NCBI GenBank assembly: GCA_965248925.1
Contig: CBDFLE010000005.1
Coordinates: forward strand, 1,760,001 to 1,824,000
Length of the DNA stretch: 64,000 bases
Direction of reading: 5' to 3'
Source of the DNA: Candidatus Multivoradales bacterium
GTDB taxonomy: Bacteria; Acidobacteriota; Thermoanaerobaculia; Multivoradales; J023
Shown here: piece after piece, positions 27,039 to 56,395 of the stretch
Position numbering within the stretch: the first letter of the stretch is position 1
How the letters are laid out: each line of letters begins with the position of its first letter
Made by a program: the position numbers and the translations under genes
Notes under the pieces: generated by a model
Databases searched by the model: none
What the model was told of the DNA's origin: nothing
The model's input: the letters and a program-made list of their open reading frames with translations, nothing else

Positions 27039-28893
27039 AGTTGACCTCGACCCAACGCTTAGCCTTGAGCTCGAAGCGCGGCAGGCTGCCCCGCTCGACG
27101 ACCCGGACCGGGATCCGCAGCTGAAAGGCGTCGCGCAGCGCGGTTTCCAGGCGTTGCGCCAGCTCTGTGGGGGCGATGGCATCGTCGAGCGGCTCAAAGT
27201 GGATCTCGATCTCCACCATCGCGCCACTGGACAGCTGGCGGACCTGATACTCACCAATTCCGGCCAGGGAACGCACCACCTGCTCGACGGCGCTGGGAAA
27301 GAGGTTGACCCCGCGCACCACCCGCATGTCATCGGCCCGCGCCAGGATGCCTCCTTCGAGGGCCAGCTCGTGCAGGCCCAATTCCTTGGACGAGCGCTTC
27401 GAGGGCCGCACCAGGTCGCCCGTGCGGTAGCGCAGCAGCGGTGAGCCGTTGCGCCGCAGGGTGGTCAGCAGCAGCTCACCCACCTCCCCCGGCGCCACCG
27501 GCTGCAATGTCTCAGGGTCCACAACTTCGGCCAAAAAGCTGTCCTCGGCAATATGCAGCACGCCGGCATGCTGCGGATTGGGGAAGCTCACCGGGCCGAC
27601 CTCGGTCATGCCGTGATGATCAAAAATCTCGGCTCCCCACAGCTCGGCCAAGCGCAGACGAGTCGCCGGCACGCTGCCGCCGGGCTCACCCGCGACGATC
27701 AGCCGCTCGACCGATGAAGGCACCAGATCGATGCCCTCCTGCGCCGCGACCTCAGCCAAATGCACCGCATAGGTCGGCGTCGCACAGATCACCGTCACCT
27801 GATTGTCGATCAACATCTGCAAGCGAGCGGCGGTCGACACCCCCCCCCCCGACAAGCACAGACAGCCCATCTCGGCCGCGGCGTCGAAGGCCACCCAGAA
27901 ACCCAAGAACGGCCCGAAGGAAAAGGGAAACAGCAGACGGTCCGAGGCATCGACACCGGCGACGTCGAAAACTCGCCGCCAGACTTCCCGCAACACCGCG
28001 AAGCTCTCCGGCGTATCGAGCCAGCGCAGCGGCTGGCCGCTGGTGCCACTGGTCTGGTGAAAGCGACTGTAGCGCTCCAGGGGATAGGTGAGATTGGTGC
28101 CATAAGGCGGTTGGCGACCCTGATCGTCAACCAGCTCGGTCTTGGTGGTGGGTGGCAGGCGGCTGAGATCCTCAAGCCTGCCAATGCCCTCGTCGAGGCC
28201 AGCGGCACGAAGCCTCGGCGCGTAAAAAGCGTTGCTTTGCGACAACTCTCCGAGCAAGCGGCGTAAGCGGCGCAGCTGTCGCCGACGCAGCTCATGACGG
28301 GCCACATCCTCGGGCAAGCTGGCCATCACCGTTACCGAGCTAGGCTCCAGCGGTGGCAGCAATTCGAGCACCTCGGCCAATAGTCTGCCGTCGTTAGCGA
28401 TCAGAGTGTTCTGGCGCCCGAAGAGGGTGGCACCCTCGGGCACCAAGCCTTCAAACAGGATGCCGGCGGCATCGAGACGCAGAAAACCGCGGGTGCGGCT
28501 ACTGTATTTGACCCCTTGTTCAGTCAAGATCCCACCGAGCGGCAGGTGCCCCTGCAAGATCAGACCGCGCACTGGGGCAGCGAAACATTGCAGATGGATC
28601 TCGATCGCCCCAAGTTCCGCCAAGCGACCGCTGTCGGCGCCGACCAACGCCACCCGCCGCAGCAGGCTCTGGCCCCGGCGGCGGAGTTCCAAGACCCGGA
28701 TCAGAATCGGTTCGCCACAGAAACTCTCCAAGGTCGAGGTCATGTCGACCCGGTGATCGAGCAGCCGGCGATAGGGCTGGGGTAAATCCTCGCTGCGCAG
28801 CGGCTGCGCCTCGAGCCGGTCACGCTCGGGCAGAAAAAGCTCGGTCAGCGGGTACAGCAGATCGACGGCGGTTCTCTTGCTCGGCATGCTCAA
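27037..28893 (-). CDS. Fusion of chorismate pyruvate-lyase-like domain and phenylacetate--CoA ligase (PaaK-like) domain
   Basis: N-terminal LLDHRVDMTSTLE...PLGGIL...GRQNTL...EVLELLP (chorismate lyase/UTRA fold-like); C-terminal QTSGTSG, GEPG, DHHGMTE, LRYRTGD, RADDM..VRGVNLFP. Confidence 0.75.
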   Translation of the reverse strand: MSMPSKRTAVDLLYPLTELFLPERDRLEAQPLRSEDLPQPYRRLLDHRVDMTSTLESFCGEPILIRVLELRRRGQSLLRRVALVGADSGRLAELGAIEIHLQCFAAPVRGLILQGHLPLGGILTEQGVKYSSRTRGFLRLDAAGILFEGLVPEGATLFGRQNTLIANDGRLLAEVLELLPPLEPSSVTVMASLPEDVARHELRRRQLRRLRRLLGELSQSNAFYAPRLRAAGLDEGIGRLEDLSRLPPTTKTELVDDQGRQPPYGTNLTYPLERYSRFHQTSGTSGQPLRWLDTPESFAVLREVWRRVFDVAGVDASDRLLFPFSFGPFLGFWVAFDAAAEMGCLCLSGGGVSTAARLQMLIDNQVTVICATPTYAVHLAEVAAQEGIDLVPSSVERLIVAGEPGGSVPATRLRLAELWGAEIFDHHGMTEVGPVSFPNPQHAGVLHIAEDSFLAEVVDPETLQPVAPGEVGELLLTTLRRNGSPLLRYRTGDLVRPSKRSSKELGLHELALEGGILARADDMRVVRGVNLFPSAVEQVVRSLAGIGEYQVRQLSSGAMVEIEIHFEPLDDAIAPTELAQRLETALRDAFQLRIPVRVVERGSLPRFELKAKRWVEVN

Positions 28894-45489: not shown

Positions 45490-45794
45490 ATTCTCAGACG
45501 CAAAGTAGAGAAATCTCTGGCAGACGCTGTTTCTCAGCACCACTAAGCCGACTGTTCTAGAATTGTGGCTCAGATATCCGAAGCTGGCTCGCCGGTCGTC
45601 TGGACCCTCTCCGCGAGATCTCTTTGGCTATCGTTTGAGTTTCAAAACTAGGAGACTTGCGACCGACTTGCGGTCGTCGTCTTCCGATGGGGCTCCCGGA
45701 CAGCCGGGATCGTTCGAAGGAGTGTCGGCTCACTCTGGCTTAGGCTTTGCGGTGGGCAGACAAATCCTCTTCAGACAACACTCAGGAGAAGTCG

Positions 45795-48194
45795 ATGAAA
45801 CGTTTGTCGTGCGCCTTGCTCATCTCATTGCTGCTGGCGCTACCAGCTATCGCCGCCGACGAAGGCATCCAAGCCGAGAGTGTGCAGCTGGTCAAAGCCG
45901 GCTCCGCCCCGACCCTCAAAGAGATCCTCCGCCAACACCCAGCCGACACTCCGACCTCTTTCGGCGAGGTCCGCGAGGTGGTCAACCGCTCCCCCGAATG
46001 GCTGCTTGATCGTCAGCCCAGCAGCTCCCCCGCCGACCCGCTGCTCGACCTGGGCCTGATCGAAAGCCTGGCGCCAGCCGCCTCGTTGAGCGTCGAGGGC
46101 TACGCGAATACCGACAACGGCGCGTTGTTCGGATTCCTGATCTCGCCGCCGGATACCAATGGCGATGTCGGGGTTGAGTTCTACGTCCAGTACGTCAACC
46201 TTGGCTGGGAAGTCTTCGCCAAGGCCACCGGCGCATCGGTGGGCGGTGGCCCCTTTGCCGGCAACATCTTCTGGCAGGGATTCGGCGGTGTTTGTGAGAG
46301 CGACAACGCGGGCGATCCGATTGTGCTCTACGATCACTTGGCTGGCGAGTGGGTGTTCTCTCAGTTCACCTCGTCGGGCAATCCCGACGGCCACCAATGC
46401 TTCGCCATCAGCCAGGGTGGCAGCCCCTTTGGCCCCTACCTGCTCTATGACTTCCTGGTCAGCCCAGCGGCCTTCAACGATTATCCGAAGATTGCCCTGT
46501 GGCCCGATGCCTACTACATGACCACCAACGAGTTCACCGCCAGCTTCGTCGGGGTCAACATCACCGCTTTTGATCGCGCCGGTCTGCTGACCGGTACCGG
46601 TAACGCGGTGCAGGTCTCGCTCCCCTTCACCGGCGCGGCGCCGGTCCGTTTCAGCTTGCAGCCATCGCACCTCGAAGGTGGCAGTCCGCCGCCGGCCGGC
46701 GGCACTTGCAATCTGATCGTCCAGTCTTTCGACGACGATACCTGGGGCAATGGCGGTGGGCCGGATGGCTACCAATTCTGGGAATTCTGCCCGGACTTCG
46801 TCACCGCCGCCAACTCGACCTTCACCACCGGACCTTTCCTCACCGCGCCGGCCTTTAACTTCGGCCTGACCAGCGTGCCGCAGCGGGGCACCACTCAGGT
46901 CTTGGATCCCCTCGGCCAATTCACCATGTACCGCTTTGGCACCCGTGCCGAGGGCGGCAATCTGGTGGGCGCGTTAGCCCACACCGTCGATGTCGGCGCG
47001 GGTCGCAACGGCATTCGCTGGGCGACCTTCGACCTGCCAAGCTTGGCCGGGGTTGGGATCAGCGATACCGGCACCTTCGCCCCCGGCAGCGAACACCGCT
47101 GGACCCCCTCGGCAACCCTCGACAGCGTCGGCAACCTGGGGATCGTCTACTCTCGGTCCAGCAGCGAGTCCTTCCCCTCGGTGTACTTCAGCGGCCGGGA
47201 GTCCAGCGATCCGGCTGGCACTCTGCAGGCCGAGTCGGTGTGTATCGATGGCACCGGCAGCTACCTGGGCTCGTCCCGCTGGGGCGACTACGCCACCGCC
47301 AGCGTCGATCCGGTCGACGGTTGTACCTTCTGGGTCACCAATGAGTATGTCGAAACCACCGGCGCGGTGCCCTGGAAGACCCGCATCTGCTCCTACAAAT
47401 TCCCCTCTTGCGGCAGCACCGTCGGTGGCCCCTTGCAAGCCGCCCAGCAGACCACTGACGAGCAGATCCGCACGGTGGCACTGACCGGCTTCACCAACCC
47501 GGTAGTGACCATGGGACCGCCTTCGTTCGTCGGCAGCCAACCGACCACGGTGCGGGTGCGCAACGTCACCGCAAGTAGTTTCCAGCAGAATCTCCAGGAG
47601 TGGGACTACCTCGATGGCAGCCATGTTGAAGAGACTATCGGCTACCTGGCCCTCGATGCCGGCGCGCAGAACCTCGGCAGCTTGGCCGCGGAAGCCGGGA
47701 CGGTGAACCTGAACCAAAACTGGACGACGGTGAACTTCTCCCAGACCTTCGCCAGCGCCCCGGTGGTATTCGCCCAGACAGCCTCCTTTGCCGGTAGCCA
47801 GGCAGTGACCGAGCGCATCCGCGACGTCACCACCACCAGCTTCCAGGTGCGGTTGCAGGAGGAAGAGGCTAACGACGACATTCACAACACCGAAATAGTG
47901 CATTGGATCGCGGTGGCAACCGGATCCACCACGGTGGATGGCCGTCCCTTGCTAGTCGGGCGCACCACAAATTCCGTGACGCAGAATTTCACTACCATCA
48001 ACTTCGGCGCTAGTGTTACCAACCCGATTCTGATCGCCGACATGCAAACCTACGATGGCCGCGACACGGCTGCCCTGCGCTACCTCAATTTGAGCGCCAC
48101 GACAGTGGAGATCAAGATCGAGGAAGAGAAGTCGGCCGACACTGAAATCAACCACACCTCCGAGGTAGTTGGCTGGTTGGTCATCGGTCCCTGA
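45795..48194 (+). CDS. Secreted beta-rich protein with C-terminal H-type-lectin-like repeats
   Basis: AGGAG RBS; signal peptide; PPDTNGDVG, GDPIVLYD, DYPK, RWGDY core; three repeats such as VRVRNVTASSF...QEWDYLDGSH.EE.IGY. Confidence 0.7.
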   Translation: MKRLSCALLISLLLALPAIAADEGIQAESVQLVKAGSAPTLKEILRQHPADTPTSFGEVREVVNRSPEWLLDRQPSSSPADPLLDLGLIESLAPAASLSVEGYANTDNGALFGFLISPPDTNGDVGVEFYVQYVNLGWEVFAKATGASVGGGPFAGNIFWQGFGGVCESDNAGDPIVLYDHLAGEWVFSQFTSSGNPDGHQCFAISQGGSPFGPYLLYDFLVSPAAFNDYPKIALWPDAYYMTTNEFTASFVGVNITAFDRAGLLTGTGNAVQVSLPFTGAAPVRFSLQPSHLEGGSPPPAGGTCNLIVQSFDDDTWGNGGGPDGYQFWEFCPDFVTAANSTFTTGPFLTAPAFNFGLTSVPQRGTTQVLDPLGQFTMYRFGTRAEGGNLVGALAHTVDVGAGRNGIRWATFDLPSLAGVGISDTGTFAPGSEHRWTPSATLDSVGNLGIVYSRSSSESFPSVYFSGRESSDPAGTLQAESVCIDGTGSYLGSSRWGDYATASVDPVDGCTFWVTNEYVETTGAVPWKTRICSYKFPSCGSTVGGPLQAAQQTTDEQIRTVALTGFTNPVVTMGPPSFVGSQPTTVRVRNVTASSFQQNLQEWDYLDGSHVEETIGYLALDAGAQNLGSLAAEAGTVNLNQNWTTVNFSQTFASAPVVFAQTASFAGSQAVTERIRDVTTTSFQVRLQEEEANDDIHNTEIVHWIAVATGSTTVDGRPLLVGRTTNSVTQNFTTINFGASVTNPILIADMQTYDGRDTAALRYLNLSATTVEIKIEEEKSADTEINHTSEVVGWLVIGP

Positions 48195-48590: not shown

Positions 48591-49426
48591 TGGAGTTGAC
48601 CCGGTTTAGTGGCCACTTCACCCACTGGGTGCAAGGAGGTCACAATGCCGAGAACACGGGTAGCATATACGCCGGAGTTTCGCTGCCGGCTGGTGGAGTT
48701 GGCACGTTCGGGTCGATCACTGAGTTCGTTGGTTCGGGAGTTTGAGCCGACGGTCGAGTCCATCCGCAAATGGGTCCGCCAAGCAGATCTGGACGAGAGG
48801 CATCGCGACGATGGTCTGACGACGGTTGAACAGCAAGAGATTCGTCGGCTTAGGCGCGAGGTTCGTCGGCTGGTCCATGAGGACACACCTTCGCTCCGGC
48901 CTGGTGCTTGAGGCGCTTGAGATGGCGCTTCATCAACGGCGGCCGAAGTCGGTCATCCATCACTCGGATCAAGGCACGCAATATACCTCGATCGCCTTGG
49001 GTCTACGCCGCAAGCGGGCAGGCGTGAGGTCCTCGATGGGCTCGGTCGGTGATTGCTTTGATAACGCCGCCATGTGCGAGAGCTTCTTTGCAACGCTCGA
49101 GTGCGAGTTGCTGGAGCGACACAAATTTCGCACGCAGATCGACGCTCGAGTGGCGACCTCCGATTTAGTCGAGGGCTGGTACAACCCACATCGACGCCAC
49201 TCTGCCTTGGGTTATCTCGGTCCCATGACGTTTGAAAGTCGTGAACTGGAACGCGCCGCATGAACGGCGACGATCAGAGGGGTATGGAAGCTGCCGCTGC
49301 TGCGGAAATCGCTGTGAGCTTACCGCATCCGCTTGGAAAACGCTGCGCGTTTCCCACAGCTCCCACACCCCCGACGACGACAGAGGTTCGAAGAGATAAA
49401 CTGTCCACCAAACCGGGGTGGCTCCA
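48591..49426 (+). mobile_element. IS3-family element with internal deletion
   Basis: IRL TGGAGTTGACCCGGTTTAGTGGCCACT and IRR (reverse complement) TGGAGCCACCCCGGTTTGGTGGACAGT; CTC on both flanks; orfA MPRTRVAYTPEFR joined to an rve C-terminus with HHSDQGTQY, DNA..ESFFATL, YNPHRRHSALGYL. Confidence 0.9.
49279..49379 (+). other. Structured three-way-junction element inside IS3, 3' of the transposase
   Basis: GGGGTATGGAAGCTG...TGCGG/CCGCA...TGGAAAACGC/GCGTTTCCCA...CAGCTCCCACACCCC-CGACGACG; homologous to 52496-52612. Confidence 0.65.
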
Positions 49427-49428
49427 CT

Positions 49429-49476
49429 CTTAGGCAACTACTTAGAAAGCTACTTAGACAGCTACATAAACAGCGA
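49429..49476. repeat. Four imperfect tandem 12-mers
   Basis: CTTAGGCAACTA CTTAGAAAGCTA CTTAGACAGCTA CATAAACAGCGA. Confidence 0.65.
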
Positions 49477-49490
49477 AAGAAGAGTTAGCG

Positions 49491-50111
49491 ATGATCGATC
49501 ATTTACTGTGGGCGGTGCCCGAACTCGAACGTGGTATCGACCAATTCGCCGAACTCAGCGGCGTCCGCGCCGCCCACGGCGGCAGCCATCCGGGGCTCGG
49601 CACTCACAACGCACTTCTCGACCTCGGTGCAGGGCGCTACCTGGAGATCCTGGCCAGCGATCCGGCTCAGCGCGGCGACCGGCGGAGCTTTGGTCGCTGG
49701 CTCGATGGGCTAACAGAACCTCGCTTGCTGACTTGGGCGGCACCCACCACCGACGCTGAAGCACTCGCCGCCCGAGCACTCGCGGCCGGATTGCAGCCCG
49801 CGACGATCGTCGAAATTACCCGCCAACGCCTTGAAGGAGGTCAGTTTCGCGGCCGCCTATTGGAGATCGGCGGCCATCCTTTTGGCCTCATCTTGCCGTT
49901 CTTCATCCAACGAGACCAGAACTCGGCCCATCCGAGCCGCGATGCGCCACGAGGAATCGAGCTAACCAACTTCGAGTTGAACCACCCGGAGGCCGAGGAT
50001 CTCCGACGCACTCTCACTCATTTGGATCTGGAATTCAGCGTTCGAGCCGCCGGGCAAACCGCCCTGCGGGCGACGCTGGCAACCCCGCAGGGCTTGATCA
50101 AGCTCGGCTGA
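49491..50111 (+). CDS. VOC/glyoxalase-like (Glyoxalase_3) protein
   Basis: IDHLLWAVPELERG, GGSHPGLGTHNALL.LG..YLEILA.DP, LPFFIQ. Confidence 0.88.
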   Translation: MIDHLLWAVPELERGIDQFAELSGVRAAHGGSHPGLGTHNALLDLGAGRYLEILASDPAQRGDRRSFGRWLDGLTEPRLLTWAAPTTDAEALAARALAAGLQPATIVEITRQRLEGGQFRGRLLEIGGHPFGLILPFFIQRDQNSAHPSRDAPRGIELTNFELNHPEAEDLRRTLTHLDLEFSVRAAGQTALRATLATPQGLIKLG

Positions 50112-50126
50112 CGGCCTCGGCCCGTC

Positions 50127-50425
50127 CGTAGACCCGATCTCTTGACACAATCTTGGATACATAGTCTTGCTCGGGGATTCTTGGACTCGAGGTAAACTAA
50201 GGCCATCGAGTTCCCTGAGAAGGTCAAGCGATGGGCAAGAGAAGTCAGCTGCCGTTAGCAGAACGCGAGGAAGTGGTACTGCGTTTGCTGCGCAAGGAAG
50301 AGCCGCTAGCAGCACTCTCGCGCCGGTACCAAGTAAGCGAACAGACGCTGTATCGGTGGCGTGACGAGTTTCTGACCGGCGGTCGTGAACGTCTGGCCAA
50401 GAGCCGGCGGTCGGCCGCTGGCTAG
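50127..50425 (+). mobile_element. IS remnant: left end plus truncated transposase HTH (IS3-like orfA)
   Basis: CGTAGACCCGATCTCTTGACACA end-like sequence; ORF 50231 EREEVVLRLLR...LSRRYQVSEQTLYRWRDEFL, truncated. Confidence 0.65.
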
Positions 50426-51110
50426 GATCCCGGCCACACCGAAAAGCAGTGGTACGACGATCAGAACTTGGGGATCGAAGGGTGAAGTCTTGTAGAGCAG
50501 CGCCCATAAGGATCTGAGCCCGGCCATGGCAAGTAGCAAGGCGCAAGCGGATCTCCTTAGCCCGGTCCTCGGCCCGGGCAAGCATCAGGTTGGTGACGTT
50601 GAGGCAGGCGAGCAGCAGAAGCAGGGCGACCGCGGCCAGCAAGAGGTAGTTGGTATGGCGGCCGACCGAGCCCAAGAAAAACTCGTCGATCGGCTCGAGT
50701 TCGGCACCCCAGCCGGAGTTCGAGTCAGGGAACTGCTCGGCGAGTCGTCTAGCAAGCGCGCCGATCTCCTGATTCGCCGATCAGAGATCGACCTCGGGCT
50801 TCAAGCGGGCAAAGGCGGTGAGCCGACGATCCCCCGCGGGCGTAGGAGAATCGAGGCTGTGGAGCAAGAACAGGTCGTCGTCCTGGTTCCAAAGCCGAAA
50901 CCCCTCGGGCAGTACGCCGATGACCGTCCAGAACTCTCCATCCAGGTCGATACGCCGACCGATGATCTGAGGATCGCTGGCAAAATATCGCCGCCAGCCG
51001 CCGTCAGTCAGCACGACTTGCCGAAGCGCCGACCCACGACGCTCTTCGGCGATAGAAAAGGTACGGCCTTGACTAGCTTCGACCCCGAGCACACGAATCA
51101 AGCGCCGCCT
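50420..51110 (-). pseudogene. Fragments of an ADOP/MacB-FtsX ABC permease
   Basis: VVLTDGGWRRYFASDPQIIGRRIDLDG..TVIGVLP, LLLLACLNVTNLMLARAEDRAKEI, and C-terminal SPFDPQVL...GILAS in different frames. Confidence 0.75.
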
Positions 51111-51345
51111 GCCGGTGGCTCCTTCCTGCAAGGTGAATACACCGCCGGAGTCCACAGGAGCTAGTTCTGCCCAGGGCACTCGGACTTGACGCCTGCACTT
51201 GATCTTGGTCTGATACCTGAGTTATCTCCGGGGCGCCGCCGCTGGCAGCGCACACCATGCCGCCGAGAGGCGCTGCAGCGGATCCAAATCCGTCACGCTC
51301 GACGCTGGTTCGGGGAATAAGGGCGCCCTCTCAGGAGGCTGCTCT

Positions 51346-52089
51346 ATGCATGGCTCTCGAAGCGGCAGGCGTGTCGGTCGCGTTGTAGGATTGTGGCTTT
51401 ACCCGGTCAAGTCGATGGGAGCGGAGGCACTGGCTGAGGTCGACGTATCCTGGCATGGCCTTACCGGCGATCGCCGCTGGGCATTCATCCTAAACGACAT
51501 GGCACAGAGCGGGTTCCCTTGGCTCACCCTTCGGGTTTGCGGGAATATGAGTCACTACACCCCGTCGTTCGTCCAGCAGTCTCGTCCAGACAAATCGCCA
51601 GCGGTCGTTCGGACTCCGTCGGGGTCCACCTTCGACGTTGCGGATCCAGCGCTGGCCGCAGAACTCTGCTCGCGCGAAGTGCGGGTGATCAAGCAGAACC
51701 GTGGCATCTTCGACACCTTCCCGCTGTCCCTCATCTCGACCCAGACGATTGGCCTGCTCGGCGACTTGGTTGGCGCCCGGCTAGAGGTCCAGCGTTTTCG
51801 ACCGAACATCTTGGTAGAGGCGGCCGATGGAACGCCGTTTCCCGAGGACGGCTGGGTTGGATGCGTCTTGCGAATCGGCAGCCTGTGCCTGCGCGTCGAC
51901 AAGCGCGACGGCCGTTGCGCCGTCGTTACTATCGATCCTGTGACGGCGGAGCGCAACCCCGCGATCCTGCGGACAGTCGCTGGTGATCGTCAGGGTTGCC
52001 TTGGGGTTTACGGATCGACCGTGGCACCTGGTCACCTCTCAGTAGGTGATCCCGTTCTAATCGAGTCGTCTCCCACGCGCTCTGGCTGA
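51346..52089 (+). CDS. MOSC-domain protein
   Basis: LYPVKSM, GDRRWA, RFRPNILVE, EDGW, RCAVVTIDP, GVYG...G.LSVGD. Confidence 0.9.
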   Translation: MHGSRSGRRVGRVVGLWLYPVKSMGAEALAEVDVSWHGLTGDRRWAFILNDMAQSGFPWLTLRVCGNMSHYTPSFVQQSRPDKSPAVVRTPSGSTFDVADPALAAELCSREVRVIKQNRGIFDTFPLSLISTQTIGLLGDLVGARLEVQRFRPNILVEAADGTPFPEDGWVGCVLRIGSLCLRVDKRDGRCAVVTIDPVTAERNPAILRTVAGDRQGCLGVYGSTVAPGHLSVGDPVLIESSPTRSG

Positions 52090-52495
52090 CAACCCCGTTG
52101 ACACAACTCAGGGGGTCGCTCGCCGCACGCCAGTTGTCAATGAACACCATCCCGTTTCTGGACCTGGGAAACTGGGTGGCGACGAGAAGACCTGCCGGAG
52201 CCCGCCGATGGGTAAAGGCGGGCCGAGGAGTGGCCTCAGCGTTGGCTGGGATCCCCCACCCGAGTTTTGACCTGATCGCTCCTGAAGGGGTGCAATAGCT
52301 GCCGCAGATAGCCTTTGGGAAAGCTCTCCCGCCCCATGCCTATTCCGACGAAACTGACCAGCCATTCCGATCGAAACCGACCACTTGTCGGAGCGAAGCG
52401 ACGCTGGCGCTCTCCTCAGTTGTAAGTGTCCACTTTCGCTGTAGCTGGAGCCCTCCTTCCGGCTCTTCTTCTTGATTGATTGTATTCAAATAACC

Positions 52496-52612
52496 CGTCG
52501 TCGGGGCTGTGCGTAGCTGTGGGAAACGCAGGTTGGGGGGCAGGGGGGCGTTTTCCAAGCGGTTGTGGGAATCGCAGAGCGATTTCCACAACCGCGGCAG
52601 CTTCCACAGTCC
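52496..52612 (-). other. Structured three-way-junction element inside IS21, 3' of istB
   Basis: GGACTGTGGAAGCTG CCGCGGTTGTGGAAATCGC/GCGATTCCCACAACCGC TGGAAAACGC/GCGTTTCCCA CAGCTACGCACAGCCCC GACGACG. Confidence 0.65.
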
Positions 52613-52691
52613 ATCTTGGGTCGGGTCCGGATCGGGCCGCAGGCCCGCTGATGGGTCCGGATCGGCGATCGCTTCAGCATGCTCTTGGATC

Positions 52692-53456
52692 TCACCTTGC
52701 CTCTCGCTGGGCGGCCTTGCGAATACCGCCGGCTCTCTTCGCCCGCATGGAGTCACCGTCCACCGCGAGCTTGTAGGCGCCGTGGACAGTGCGATCGAGG
52801 ATGGCGTCGGCCAAGGTCGGATCGCCGATGACCTCGTACCAGCTCTCAACCGGTAGCTGGGAGGTCACCAGCGTGGAGCGGTTGCCGTAGCGGTCCTCAA
52901 GAATCTCGAGCAGGTCGCGCCGCTCGCTGGCCCCGATCGGCGCCAGCCCCCAGTCGTCGAGGATGAGCAGGTCTGTGCGAGCATAGCTCTTGAGCAGCTT
53001 CTCGTAGCTACCATCACCCCGCGCGATGGCGAGCTGGCGAAACAGCCTCGGCACCCGCAGGTACAAAGCGGTGTAACCCTCCCGACATGCCTTGTGCGCG
53101 AAGGCGCAGGCGAGAAAGGTCTTGCCCACCCCGGCCTTGCCGGTGATCAGCACGTTGAGATGCTCGGCGATCCACTGGCACGAGGCCAGGCGCAGGATCT
53201 GGCCTTTGTCCAGGCCCCTCTTGGCTCGCCAGTCGATGTCTTCGATGGCCGCCTGCTCGCGCAGCTTGGCTTTTCGCAACCGCGCTATCAAGCGGCGGCT
53301 GGATCGCTCGGTCGCTTCGCGCTCGACCAGCAGCCCGAGGCGCTCTTCGAAGGAGAGCTCTGAGACATCGACCATCGACAGCTGCTCCTCAAAGGCTTTG
53401 GCCATACCGTGGAGCTTGAGCGCGGCGAGTTGATCGAGCGTCGCGTGCCTCAGCAT
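52692..53456 (-). CDS. istB: IS21 helper AAA+ ATPase
   Basis: LKLHGM, GKAGVGKT, LLILDDWG, TSQLP, ADAILDR, GDSMR. Confidence 0.95.
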   Translation of the reverse strand: MLRHATLDQLAALKLHGMAKAFEEQLSMVDVSELSFEERLGLLVEREATERSSRRLIARLRKAKLREQAAIEDIDWRAKRGLDKGQILRLASCQWIAEHLNVLITGKAGVGKTFLACAFAHKACREGYTALYLRVPRLFRQLAIARGDGSYEKLLKSYARTDLLILDDWGLAPIGASERRDLLEILEDRYGNRSTLVTSQLPVESWYEVIGDPTLADAILDRTVHGAYKLAVDGDSMRAKRAGGIRKAAQREAR

Positions 53457-55024
53457 GGCGGCGTCTCCTCGCGGCGCGCGGCACTGTAGTAGCTGGCGCC
53501 GCGGACGTTGCGGTGCTCGATCGGCGCCGTCACTTCGGTGGGCTCGGGCGCTGCTTGCTGGTCCAGGCCGCTCTTCAGGATCGACTTCACGCTCTTGTAG
53601 GACAGGCCGTGAATGGCGAGCGCGCGGCGGCACGCAGCCTCCAAACGATTGGCACCATAGGTCTTGCCCAGGCGCATCAGCCCCAGACACGAGCGAAAGC
53701 CGTGCTGAGGATGGGAGCGGTTAAGCATGATGGTCTCCACCAGTTCGGCCGTCGCCTGGCCTGTTTTCGCCGCCCAGCTGATCAGCCGTGTCGGTGTCCA
53801 CTCCAGGTACGCCTGGTGCGCTTTGGGCATGTGCTCGCTCTGGGTCGTGTGCCGACCCCGACACCGATTGCGACGATGAGCAGCCACACGCTTGCCGCGA
53901 TCGAGCACCTCCACCAGTTGCGCCGTCGCCCGCAGATCGAGCTGCTTCTTGATCAGCTGGTACGGCACACTGTAATAGTGGCCCTCGAACTCGACGTGGT
54001 AGTCCGGGGCAACGCGTACCTTCTTCCATTCGGCAAGCTCGTAGGGCTGGAGCGGCAAAGCACCCAGAGCAGGACGATCGACCTGCTCGAACAGCGCTCG
54101 GCGCGAGACGCCCAACACCTTCAGCGGACGGTCGTTAAGCTCGACCAGAAGCTTCGCGATGCTCTCGTTGAGCTCTCGCAGGCTGAAGAACTGCTGGTTA
54201 CGCAGCCGGGCCAGAATCCAGCGCTCCACTTGCAATACACCGTTTTCGACCTTCGCCTTGTCTTGGGGCTTCCTCACCCGCGCCGGCACCACCGCCACGC
54301 CGTAGTGCTCGGCCAACTCCGCGTAGGTGCGATTGATCTCCGGCTCGTAGCGGCACGGGCTGGTCACGCCGCTCTTCAGATTGTCCGGCACCACCAGCTC
54401 GCTCACCCCGCCCAGAGCCGCGAAGGTCCGCACATGAGAGCCGATCCAGTCCTCCAGGCCCTGGCTCCACGTTGATTCGGCATAGGTGTAGTTGCTCGCC
54501 CCCAGCACCGCCACGAAGATCTGCGCTTCGCGCGCTTTGCCAGTCGCCGGGTCGATCACCCTCACGGTCTGTCCGGCATAGTCGACGAACAGCTTCTCGC
54601 CCGCCCGGTAGGCTTGGCGCAGGCACACATCCAGGCGCCCTTCCCAGATCCGGTACAGCTGACAGAAGCGGCTGAGACCGTAGCCGTCAGGATGGTCCTC
54701 CCGGTACTCCTGCCACAGCAGCGACAGGGTTACGCACTTCTTCTTCAGCTCGCCATGCACCTTGGTCCAGTCGGGCAAGGCTCGCTGACCACCCCTCCGA
54801 AGCGGCTGCGGCCGAGGGTACAGGCGTTGCTCCAGCTCAGCGTCGCTCAAAGCTGCTACTTGCTCCCAGCTCAGGCCTTCAACCTTGGCTCGCAGCAGGT
54901 AGTTGCACACCGTCCCGTGGCCCAGCCGAACCGACCGTCCGATCTGGCGGTGCGACAGGCCATGCTGCCATTTCAGTCTCAGTACCTCGCGTATCTTGCG
55001 CATCGATGTCCTCACTCTCGGCAT
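53450..55024 (-). CDS. istA: IS21 DDE transposase
   Basis: MRKIREVLRL, FVDYAG, VPDNLKSGV, KPQDKAKVE, YYSVPY. Confidence 0.95.
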   Translation of the reverse strand: MPRVRTSMRKIREVLRLKWQHGLSHRQIGRSVRLGHGTVCNYLLRAKVEGLSWEQVAALSDAELEQRLYPRPQPLRRGGQRALPDWTKVHGELKKKCVTLSLLWQEYREDHPDGYGLSRFCQLYRIWEGRLDVCLRQAYRAGEKLFVDYAGQTVRVIDPATGKAREAQIFVAVLGASNYTYAESTWSQGLEDWIGSHVRTFAALGGVSELVVPDNLKSGVTSPCRYEPEINRTYAELAEHYGVAVVPARVRKPQDKAKVENGVLQVERWILARLRNQQFFSLRELNESIAKLLVELNDRPLKVLGVSRRALFEQVDRPALGALPLQPYELAEWKKVRVAPDYHVEFEGHYYSVPYQLIKKQLDLRATAQLVEVLDRGKRVAAHRRNRCRGRHTTQSEHMPKAHQAYLEWTPTRLISWAAKTGQATAELVETIMLNRSHPQHGFRSCLGLMRLGKTYGANRLEAACRRALAIHGLSYKSVKSILKSGLDQQAAPEPTEVTAPIEHRNVRGASYYSAARREETPPC

Positions 55025-55238
55025 CCAATTCTCCTTTCAAGGAGGCTGGAATACCCCAATTGTGAGGAGCGCGCTACCGTCGAACTCCGCCGTGGCCAGG
55101 ATTCCGATCCAATCTGACCACCCATTCCGATCGACCCGGAAAAGTGGTCACTTTCGATCGGAATCGATGGTCAGATTCCGTTGGAATCACTGGTCACTTT
55201 CAATCGGAATCGGTGGTCGGTTTCCGTCGGTGCAGGCA

Positions 55239-55350
55239 CCCCGGGCCCATGGCATCGGGCCACGCGGTAGGCGGCAGGAGATAGGTACCGAAGATGCGAT
55301 CGATCCACGGGAAGTGGATGGCGAAGTTCTGCTGGTGGTAGCGGGGATCC
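55239..55350 (-). pseudogene. Sterol desaturase/fatty acid hydroxylase C-terminal fragment split by IS21
   Basis: NFAIHFPWIDRIFGTY..P..WPDAMG continues across the IS (52336 downward) as LGRESFPKGYLRQLLHPFR. Confidence 0.7.
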
Positions 55351-55569
55351 ATTGGCTCTCTCTCTGAATGGAAAGTGAGTCCTAGCATCATCGAGAGTCC
55401 GAGAATAAACTGGAATCAGGAGCCTCGATTCAGACCCGGAAGCGGCTCAAGAGCAGCGGGCTATCCCTGGCGTGTTGCTCTACTTGACATTACCGGCGAG
55501 GGACGGCCATGGGTAGCCGGTACAACAACTCTCAAGGTTGCAGCTGGCTGTACTTGACCAGCGGATCGG

Positions 55570-56395
55570 CTAGGCACTCGGGCGCGAGCGAGGCGTAGAC
55601 CGTGGTCGCGATGCGGGCAACCGGGATGCAGGGGACCGACGTGCGCCCGAGGCGTCGCCGAAGCCACGAGCAAAGCTCGACCCAGGGATGCGATCGCGAT
55701 GACGAAAGGTGCGCCCCGCCTCCGTCTGCGCAACCGCCGGGACCCCCGCACCAGCTTCTATCATGCCCAACAACTCAACGAGGCGCAGCATCACGAGATG
55801 TTCGGCGCGGCAATAAAGTGACTCATCGTCGTCGCCGGGGTAGATCGGCGGGCGTACGACCTCGACGAGCGCGCCGCCGTCGAGGTCCGCGCTGACTTCG
55901 TGGAGGCTGGCGCCGACCTGCTCGTAGCGACCTTCGGCGAAGGCGAAGAACACCCCATGGTTGCCCTTGAAGTCGGGCAGGCAACCCCCGTGGATGTTGA
56001 ACGAGCGACCGGCAGGGGCCAGCACCCGCTTGTGGACATAGGACGTGCCACACACCACCGTGACGTCGGGGCGCCAGCGCGCCATGGTCTCGACCGCCAA
56101 CTTCGAGTTGATCCACTCGACCTCAACGGTCTCGAAGTCGGGCTCGGCCACGGCCCGATCAGCGAAGAAGCGGTCACGGTAGGCTGCGTGACCGCTGAGC
56201 CGGCGCCTGAGCCTGTGATAGCGACGGTAGGCCCAATCGACATAGCGGTGGCGCCGCCAAAGGTGGGCTTTTTGCGCGCGCCCGGGCTCGAAAATCACGC
56301 CTCGGATCTCGAAGTGCGCGGCGAGCAACGCGACGAGGTACTCGTTGTGTGGGTCGTCCGAGACCAGCAGCGCCAGCTTCGATATCTTGGTGGTC
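55570..56395 (-). CDS. Formyltransferase-family protein (no clear start; possibly degraded)
   Basis: RPDVTVVCGT, FNIHGGCLPDFKG, GASLHEVSADLDGG (Formyl_trans_N motifs). Confidence 0.65.

Follow-up and report, generated by a model that had tools for sequence, protein, structure and literature searches.

A covarying three-way-junction cassette common to unrelated insertion sequence families

Two insertion sequences (ISs) in a 64,000-nucleotide window of the genome of a Candidatus Multivoradales bacterium (GenBank assembly GCA_965248925.1, contig CBDFLE010000005.1, positions 1,760,001 to 1,824,000; positions below are those of the window) carry the same structured cassette near one of their ends. 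This cassette is common to at least five unrelated IS families across several bacterial phyla, and we found no match to it in Rfam and no description of it in the literature searched. Its fold is specific to one strand and its orientation follows the end of the host element. We tentatively propose, at odds of roughly one in three, that the cassette is a strand-specific single-stranded DNA (ssDNA) signal used while circle-forming ISs are copied out.

The original prediction placed one copy of the element at 49279-49379 on the forward strand, within an IS3-family element (copy A), and another at 52496-52612 on the reverse strand, within an IS21-family element (copy B). Both are present at these positions, and open reading frame (ORF) analysis, Pfam searches and mapping of the IS ends confirmed that each lies in sense orientation between the last transposition gene and the right end of its host. 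The sequence blocks reported to be shared by the two copies were also recovered, with a mean column identity of 78% in the A-B alignment, as were the compensatory differences that preserve pairing and the difference between a 3 nt and an 18 nt loop in the second hairpin. Exact occurrences of the 13-mer TGGAAGCTGCCGC in the window are confined to copies A and B. Hereafter, the strand on which the element was first described is called the reference strand, and the opposite strand its complement. Copy A comprises an outer stem, two hairpins (the inner part of hairpin 1 is degraded) and a CGA CGA CGA tail at ~49372-49381; it begins 16 nt past the orfB stop codon and ends 47 nt short of the IS3 end. 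Copy B begins ~80 nt past the istB stop codon and ends ~160 nt short of the right end of its host, termed IS21a, which has repeated terminal motifs at both ends.

The consensus derived with RNAalifold is a module of ~105-125 nt in which two hairpins are enclosed by an outer stem, the whole being a three-way junction with joining strands of nearly zero length. The same box recurs in all three arms and reads TGGAA / TTCCCA on the reference strand and TGGGAA / TTCCA on the complement. Three C-G-R triplets follow the outer stem on its 3′ side (reference strand), with C at positions +2, +5 and +8 in 66, 65 and 64 of 81 sequences, respectively, and an A/purine-rich stretch occupies positions +21 to +40 past the junction. 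Mutual information and slid pairing yielded no convincing pseudoknot or flanking partner for the C-G-R tail.

The covariation reported for the two copies is real. In a model-fitted alignment of 82 rows (one of them a secondary reverse-strand match), standard pairs fill 93.2% of the cells as compared with 75.5% in shuffled alignments, and both partners change in 31 of the 35 pairs. Covariation scores 0.339 in the real alignment, 0.090 in shuffles and ~0.03 with slid partners. Because the pattern scan described below selected its loci by the flanks of hairpin 2, that helix appears more invariant than it is. Independent support for the structure comes from the near-identical copies of IS21a, where 5 of 21 carry a T>C change together with an A>G change of its partner at paired positions of hairpin 1. 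Among the same 21 copies, the 18 nt loop of hairpin 2 holds 6 of the 9 variable columns of the cassette, an indel included; the whole 2902 bp of IS21a has 63 variable columns. This loop is the most variable spot of IS21a; it is C-rich on the reference strand and carries GGG runs on the complement. Folding z-scores were -5.1 (copy B) and -2.3 (copy A) for the reference strand as RNA, and -6.5 (B) and -5.1 (A) for the complement as DNA; as DNA, both strands fold significantly better than shuffled sequences.

Distribution of the cassette extends far beyond the two sites from which it was predicted, with 29 matches in the same genome and many more in others. Twenty-four of the 29 lie in copies of IS21a, which BLAST detects as 21 full-length copies of 99.3-100% identity plus partial ones. 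A second IS21 element, IS21b, carries one cassette (L002), a third, IS21c, accounts for two cassettes with a different hairpin 1 (L028 and L029), and the remaining matches are right-end remnants of IS3. With a covariance model built from eight variants, the element was detected in 25 of the 61 genomes from the same family and order, a count that includes G000, and in 21 of a phylum-wide sample of 151 (E ≤ 1e-5), a tally that includes G000 and G108. An exact-pattern scan of one genome per species returned at least 83 stretches, and the covariance model recovers 73 of 80 of these loci among the matches listed. Taxon labels for the scan are the record titles of metagenome-assembled genomes (MAGs); among the matches listed they name Thermoanaerobaculia, Vicinamibacterales, Holophagae and Terriglobia within Acidobacteriota, and otherwise Gemmatimonadaceae (Gemmatimonadota), Phycisphaerae (Planctomycetota), Lentisphaeria, Chloroflexota, ‘Deltaproteobacteria’, Chromatiaceae and Alphaproteobacteria.

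Genomic context was established by Pfam scans and tblastn of the flanks, counting distinct ISs, and an IS family was assigned to 50 loci. The proposal that a discrete structured module is common to unrelated IS families holds for IS21, IS3, IS481-like, IS256 and IS110 elements. The cassette lies downstream of the last transposition gene and on the same strand in 17 IS21 loci (after istB), nine IS3 loci (after orfB) and five IS256 loci (within ~10 nt of the ORF end), with no other arrangement in these families. IS481-like elements have it in this place in eight loci and upstream and divergent in one. For IS110, three loci are downstream on the same strand, six are upstream and divergent, and one (L116) is upstream on the same strand. 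The totals are thus 42 downstream, seven upstream and divergent, and a single misfit, L116, and the reference strand is directed away from the transposase gene in 49 of the 50 loci. Because the cassette is upstream and divergent in seven loci (six IS110, one IS481-like), its polarity follows the IS end and not the gene, and we take the reference strand to point to the nearest end. Distances to that end are 47, 160 and 80 nt in the three elements whose ends were measured.

Residence of the cassette within IS110 was examined in genome G030, where two IS110 copies share a 1785 bp unit that contains the cassette. The flanks of this unit differ on both sides, which indicates that the cassette is internal to IS110 and not its target. 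Insertion of IS110 beside a pre-existing cassette was accordingly rejected; furthermore, no istB or IS3 gene occurs within ~4 kb beyond the unit.

Relationships among cassettes support the original prediction of a module exchanged among ISs. The IS3-borne copy A and the IS21b cassette share 90% identity across 101 nt, and their flanks are unrelated. More generally, the nearest relative belongs to a different IS family for 23 of 51 family-assigned elements, and the most similar pairs from different families have a host in common: IS3 and IS21b in the genome studied here, the IS110 of G030 and the IS21 of G058, two genomes of one genus (90% identity), and IS481 and IS21 in one MAG (91%). From these sequence comparisons, the cassette looks like a module exchanged between IS families within a host.

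The two strands of the cassette are not equivalent. Read on the reference strand, the non-canonical cells of paired columns comprise 78 A·C and 17 G·U combinations (23 and 6 in the first set of sequences), and a conserved A faces C in every one of the three arms. These A·C mismatches turn into G·U or G·T wobbles on the complement, where the helices are continuous. The complement is the more stable strand as RNA in 74 of 75 sequences, with a mean minimum free energy (MFE) of -70.5 kcal/mol versus -52.6 kcal/mol for the reference strand, and as DNA in all three cases tested (-38.7, -30.1 and -29.3 versus -34.0, -22.6 and -25.3 kcal/mol). Among 81 hairpin 2 loops on the complement, 36 are 3 nt long, 28 of these being GNA, and seven are tetraloops. 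Very stable DNA mini-hairpins are typified by triloops of the c-GNA-g type, whereas GNRA tetraloops are preferred in structured RNAs. The excess of A·C over G·U mismatches, the three conserved wobble positions and the GNA triloops indicate that the complement, which is antisense to istB and orfB, is the folding strand. A 7 nt loop, GTTCTKK on the complement, also recurs in 20 of the 81 hairpin 2 loops; in the forms GTTCTGT, GTTCTTG and GTTCTCT it replaces the triloop there and in ~10 hairpin 1 loops.

A role at the level of DNA, or of a transcript directed inward, is favoured because the cassette is oriented by the IS end and because the strand that folds is, at most loci, antisense to the transposase gene. 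In the reading that we prefer, the strand with its 5′ end at the nearby IS end (the complement) would fold when single-stranded, most likely as DNA. A replication fork entering through that end would displace this strand first, and the cassette might then serve as a priming or loading signal in the replicative copy-out of circle-forming ISs, by analogy with the single-strand origins (sso) and single-strand initiation (ssi) signals of rolling-circle plasmids, ssDNA phages and ColE1. Near-identity across families within a host, together with a copy that lies downstream of a plasmid repA gene, recalls the behaviour of plasmid single-strand origins. A preprint lists IS1, IS3, IS21, IS30, IS256, IS110/IS1111 and others as circle-forming families (bioRxiv 10.1101/2023.06.07.543989), and the abstract of another article makes the same statement for IS3, IS30, IS21 and IS256 (PMC3299598). 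Every family found to carry the cassette is on the list or is IS3-like. In the genome studied here, none of 38 DDE_Tnp_1 (IS4/IS5-type) matches lies within 4 kb of a copy. A bolder version, which we consider doubtful, is that the cassette would be the first cis-acting replication signal to be described for copy-out-paste-in ISs: a T-shaped, origin-like ssDNA hairpin recognized by a conserved priming or loading machine of the host, converting the displaced IS strand to a double-stranded circle, and swapped across IS21, IS3, IS481, IS256 and IS110 elements and across phyla.

Several observations weigh against a copy-out signal. The cassette is present at 10 IS110 loci, although IS110 recombinases, which work by RNA-guided strand exchange, should have no need of copy-out replication. 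The C-G-R triplets 3′ of the junction would suit a G4-type primase site on the reference strand and not on the complement. Long loop variants are G-rich on the complement, in other genomes as well, which is unusual for a functional single strand. Cassettes also adjoin tyrosine-recombinase, DUF222-HNH, DUF1670 and ordinary genes, and for 30 of 81 distinct sequences no IS family was assigned, their neighbourhoods including two DUF222(-HNH) genes, two pairs of DUF1670 genes, one plasmid repA, tyrosine recombinases, contig ends and ordinary genes. IS ends were measured in three elements only, the nearest end elsewhere being deduced from gene order. In the genome studied here, none of the IS110 (n = 4) or IS256 (n = 5) matches has a cassette within 4 kb, and the cassette is thus dispensable in these families. 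The absence of the cassette from other IS families rests on a cassette-ascertained set of loci and not on a survey of all ISs. The priming, replication or binding role, and the factor that would act on the cassette, are hypothetical and drawn from sequence and fold, and we hold them with modest confidence.

The main rival, which we regard as rather unlikely, is a structured RNA that reads inward. The complement would be transcribed from the IS end, starting at flanking promoters or, in IS110, at the junction promoter, and the three-way junction would act as an insulator, roadblock, processing signal or protective 5′ leader, such that read-in transcription neither drives the transposase nor runs antisense to its gene. 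The mismatch and stability differences between strands (A·C 78 versus G·U 17; MFE -70.5 versus -52.6 kcal/mol) fit this idea as well as they fit DNA, and where the cassette occupies the left non-coding region of an IS110 element, its folding strand is upstream of the transposase gene and sense to it. In 12 of 69 loci, IS21a included, an inward terminator-like hairpin with a T tract separates the cassette from the IS end, as compared with 2, 3 and 4 of 69 for the three control combinations of strand and side; in IS21a, the reference-strand equivalent of this hairpin is a purine-rich tract. Where such a terminator precedes the cassette, however, the cassette would rarely be transcribed. In addition, the flank reached past the junction when reading inward is G-rich and has no U tract, and the complement has no conserved promoter-like motif at a fixed distance upstream; nor does any sigma-70-like match occur near copy A or B. 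Triloops rather than GNRA tetraloops dominate, and an insulator has no obvious need for sequence conservation across phyla.

The original prediction had proposed a structured RNA or ssDNA module; read as an RNA on the reference strand, the cassette would lie in the 3′ untranslated region (UTR) of the transposase mRNA and would stabilize, terminate or regulate the transcript. Position speaks for this model, since the cassette directly follows the last transposition gene on the same strand in 42 of 50 loci, within ~10 nt in IS256. Long loops are C-rich on this strand, and the tail of the IS21a cassette can form a CCCG-ACGA-CGGG hairpin followed by TTATTT. The pairing evidence nonetheless runs the other way, with A·C far outnumbering G·U on the reference strand and a conserved A·C in each arm, and the cassette is upstream and divergent in seven loci, six of them IS110. 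An intrinsic terminator was rejected because the junction is followed by C-G-R triplets on the reference strand and by a G-rich flank on the complement, with no general U tract on either strand; a terminator scan likewise found none at the cassette itself. On these grounds a sense-strand stabilizer or terminator is not supported, and we judge any such RNA to be improbable.

We assign a similarly low likelihood to a recombination or hitch-hiking site, in which the three boxed stems would be bound by an enzyme of the HUH/Y1 nuclease, tyrosine recombinase or IS110 type, which would transfer the cassette, or other DNA, to IS ends, or in which the cassette is itself a miniature non-autonomous transposon. 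Elements of the IS200/IS605 group have subterminal hairpins on the same strand with a mismatch, and parvovirus inverted terminal repeats (ITRs) are T-shaped; two near-identical same-strand hairpins with a conserved mismatch resemble the former, and the overall shape resembles the latter. The boundaries of the cassette also coincide with those of the structure when copy A is compared with L002, and tyrosine-recombinase genes lie within ~1 kb of four cassettes (L002, L046, L121 and L069). All 29 matches in the genome, however, occupy the same position of IS21 or IS3 elements, with no solitary intergenic copy, which makes the miniature passenger element suggested in the original prediction unlikely. 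The same absence of solitary copies led us to reject a miniature inverted-repeat transposable element (MITE), even though the outer stem could pass as inverted repeats, and repetitive extragenic palindromic (REP) or REPIN sequences. Y1_Tnp domains occur in 54 of 61 relatives with or without the cassette, and G045 has the cassette and no Y1_Tnp match. No empty site was observed, and target duplications of the cassette were not seen, although no systematic search for them was made. In the only other long copy of this IS3 element (contig C4, ~27254-27743), the inner 72 nt of the cassette are missing but both cassette ends are retained, which marks it as an internal deletion. Finally, IS110 as the targeting agent was rejected for G030, as described above.

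A purely architectural function of double-stranded DNA is the least probable of the models considered. Supercoiling would extrude a branched cruciform near the IS end that bends the DNA or recruits HU-like junction-binding proteins and so aids synapsis of the ends, a service that subterminal IHF sites provide in other ISs. The subterminal location (47-160 nt from the three measured ends), a polarity that follows the end, and the better-than-shuffled folding of both strands as DNA agree with this model. Strong strand asymmetry of the mismatches would not be expected if both strands mattered equally, however, and the cassette is found at one end only; moreover, the conserved single-stranded C-G-R tail would be left unexplained.

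Other known classes of element were considered and rejected. An IS110 bridge (seek) RNA does not account for a cassette that is present in four DDE families, is antisense in three IS110 loci and has a consensus of continuous helices without internal guide loops. An omega RNA of TnpB or IscB is disfavoured by the absence of OrfB/TnpB domains among the neighbours in Pfam scans and by the 47-160 nt that separate the cassette from the measured IS ends. Integron attC sites do not fit single copies inside ISs without arrays, tyrosine recombinases being near four loci only. Although several IS3 stop-to-stop frames run across the cassette, coding was rejected: orfB in the window stops 16 nt before it, the tail triplets would encode Arg/Leu/His in the best frame, and changes within the cassette are compensatory rather than synonymous. 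The Chi-like word GCTGTGG has a leading to lagging ratio of 1251 to 920, which resembles that of other G-rich words. IS21a copies show no replication-strand bias (14 co-directional versus 9 head-on).

Database searches likewise returned no described family. Rfam 15 gave no match in the 64 kb window at gathering thresholds, and positions 52300-52800, searched at E ≤ 10, matched Ms_IGR-8 alone, whose 17 bits fall short of the 44-bit threshold. None of eight further loci, including the IS110-linked L037 and L039, had a match on the element at E ≤ 0.1. A blastn search of the PLSDB plasmids with copy B was negative. No description of the cassette was found in the literature, with the reservation that a motif listed only in the supplement of Weinberg 2017 would have been missed; the motif strings of the cassette are absent from the machine-readable supplements of Weinberg 2010.

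Table 1. Positions of the two cassette copies, their host elements and associated features in the window
Feature	Position	Strand	Remarks
Cassette copy A	49275..49385	+ (reference strand)	Covariance-model match; best-folding strand is the complement (-)
Cassette copy B	52490..52616	- (reference strand)	Best-folding strand is the complement (+)
Copy B hairpin 1 arms	52579-52595 and 52559-52575	-	
Copy B hairpin 2 stems	52548-52557 and 52520-52529	-	18 nt loop at 52530-52547
Copy B CGA CGA CGG tail	52495-52503	-	
IS21a (IS21 family), host of copy B	52337..55238	-	2902 bp; BLAST of 52000-55600 against the genome
IS21a istA	55024-53450	-	Pfam
IS21a istB	53690-52692	-	Pfam
IS3-family element, host of copy A	48591..49426	+	836 bp; internally deleted
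IS3 inverted ends	48591 and 49426		TGGAG...GGTTT at 48591; ...GGCTCCA at 49426; CTC flanks on each side
IS3 orfA (helix-turn-helix)	48609-48911	+	Pfam; intact
IS3 truncated orfB	48826-49263	+	Pfam; last 145 codons remain
Terminator-like hairpin, then CTTCTTCTTG	52443..52474	+	Directed inward; located between the cassette and the IS21a right end

Some neighbourhoods merit separate description (window features are given in Table 1). At L083, positions 2019-2050 on the reverse strand hold a sub-threshold match to the Acido-Lenti-1 RNA (29.1 bits; threshold 37) ~100 nt from the cassette and directly upstream of a DUF1670 gene pair; L119, from another MAG, also combines a cassette with DUF1670 genes. 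In the distant genomes that contain L032 (G060) and L072, the cassette is upstream of, and on the same strand as, a DUF222(-HNH) gene; the two proteins are 68% identical, and at L032 a type I methylase gene (hsdM) is divergent from the DUF222(-HNH) gene. The tyrosine-recombinase (Phage_integrase) genes near L002, L046, L121 and L069 are ~0.3-1 kb from the cassette and in three of these four loci converge on it from downstream. A conserved GCCTCTATAAAGA(A/G)TCAAG motif is found ~30-50 nt past the cassette in L088, L071, L120, L085 and L130, and is possibly the terminal sequence of the element; an IS110-type transposase gene is upstream on the same strand in L088, L071 and L130, and no IS gene was assigned in L120 and L085. 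In the window itself, an ORF of 815 amino acids with a C-terminal H-type lectin domain (45747-48194, forward strand) stops ~400 nt short of the left end of the IS3 element.

Accounts of insertion sequences usually present transposase genes and family-specific ends. A strongly covarying, sequence-conserved module that is common to five otherwise unrelated IS families, has a fixed polarity towards the IS end and is traded within hosts therefore points to a common, previously undescribed step in the IS life cycle that faces the host. Whether it is a priming signal, an insulator or a protein platform, the cassette could mark IS ends for annotation in poorly studied phyla.

The cassette bears comparison with several known systems. 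It resembles MITEs and REP-type stabilizers of 3′ UTRs as a short palindromic repeat downstream of genes whose outer stem is reminiscent of terminal inverted repeats, but it has no solitary dispersed copies in its own genome and the strand evidence favours the antisense strand. With the IS200/IS605 ends and the REP/REPIN sequences that are substrates of Y1/RAYT enzymes it has in common ~100 nt of paired, strand-specific, imperfectly repeated hairpins with conserved mismatches. Unlike them, it is embedded at a fixed place in other ISs rather than dispersed, has no link to Y1 and possesses an outer stem that closes the two hairpins into a junction. The bridge (seek) RNAs of IS110/IS1111 are also structured modules in a long non-coding region by one IS110 end, and in the left-end IS110 cases the folding strand of the cassette is likewise sense with the transposase gene; however, the cassette also resides in the DDE families IS21, IS3, IS481-like and IS256, lies on the other side and antisense in three IS110 loci, and has no paired internal guide loops. 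The ITR of adeno-associated virus is a T/Y-shaped ssDNA at the end of a mobile genome, with an outer palindrome around two hairpins with 3 nt loops and with tandem repeats. The likeness is one of architecture only, the cassette being internal rather than terminal, bacterial and without a Rep gene.

The systems to which the cassette may be closest in function are ssoA/ssoU, the G4-type and phiX-type ssi signals and the primosome sites of ColE1, which are interchangeable, non-coding, multi-hairpin elements of ~100 nt that act on one strand in one orientation and have stable triloops. The cassette is similarly strand-specific, fixed in orientation, built from multiple hairpins and traded among unrelated elements, and by analogy it might have a role in priming. 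To our knowledge, no single-strand origin is known in insertion sequences. The cassette is set apart from the plasmid and phage signals by its lack of sequence similarity to them (no plasmid match) and by its closed three-way junction, its three identical boxed arms and its C-G-R tail.

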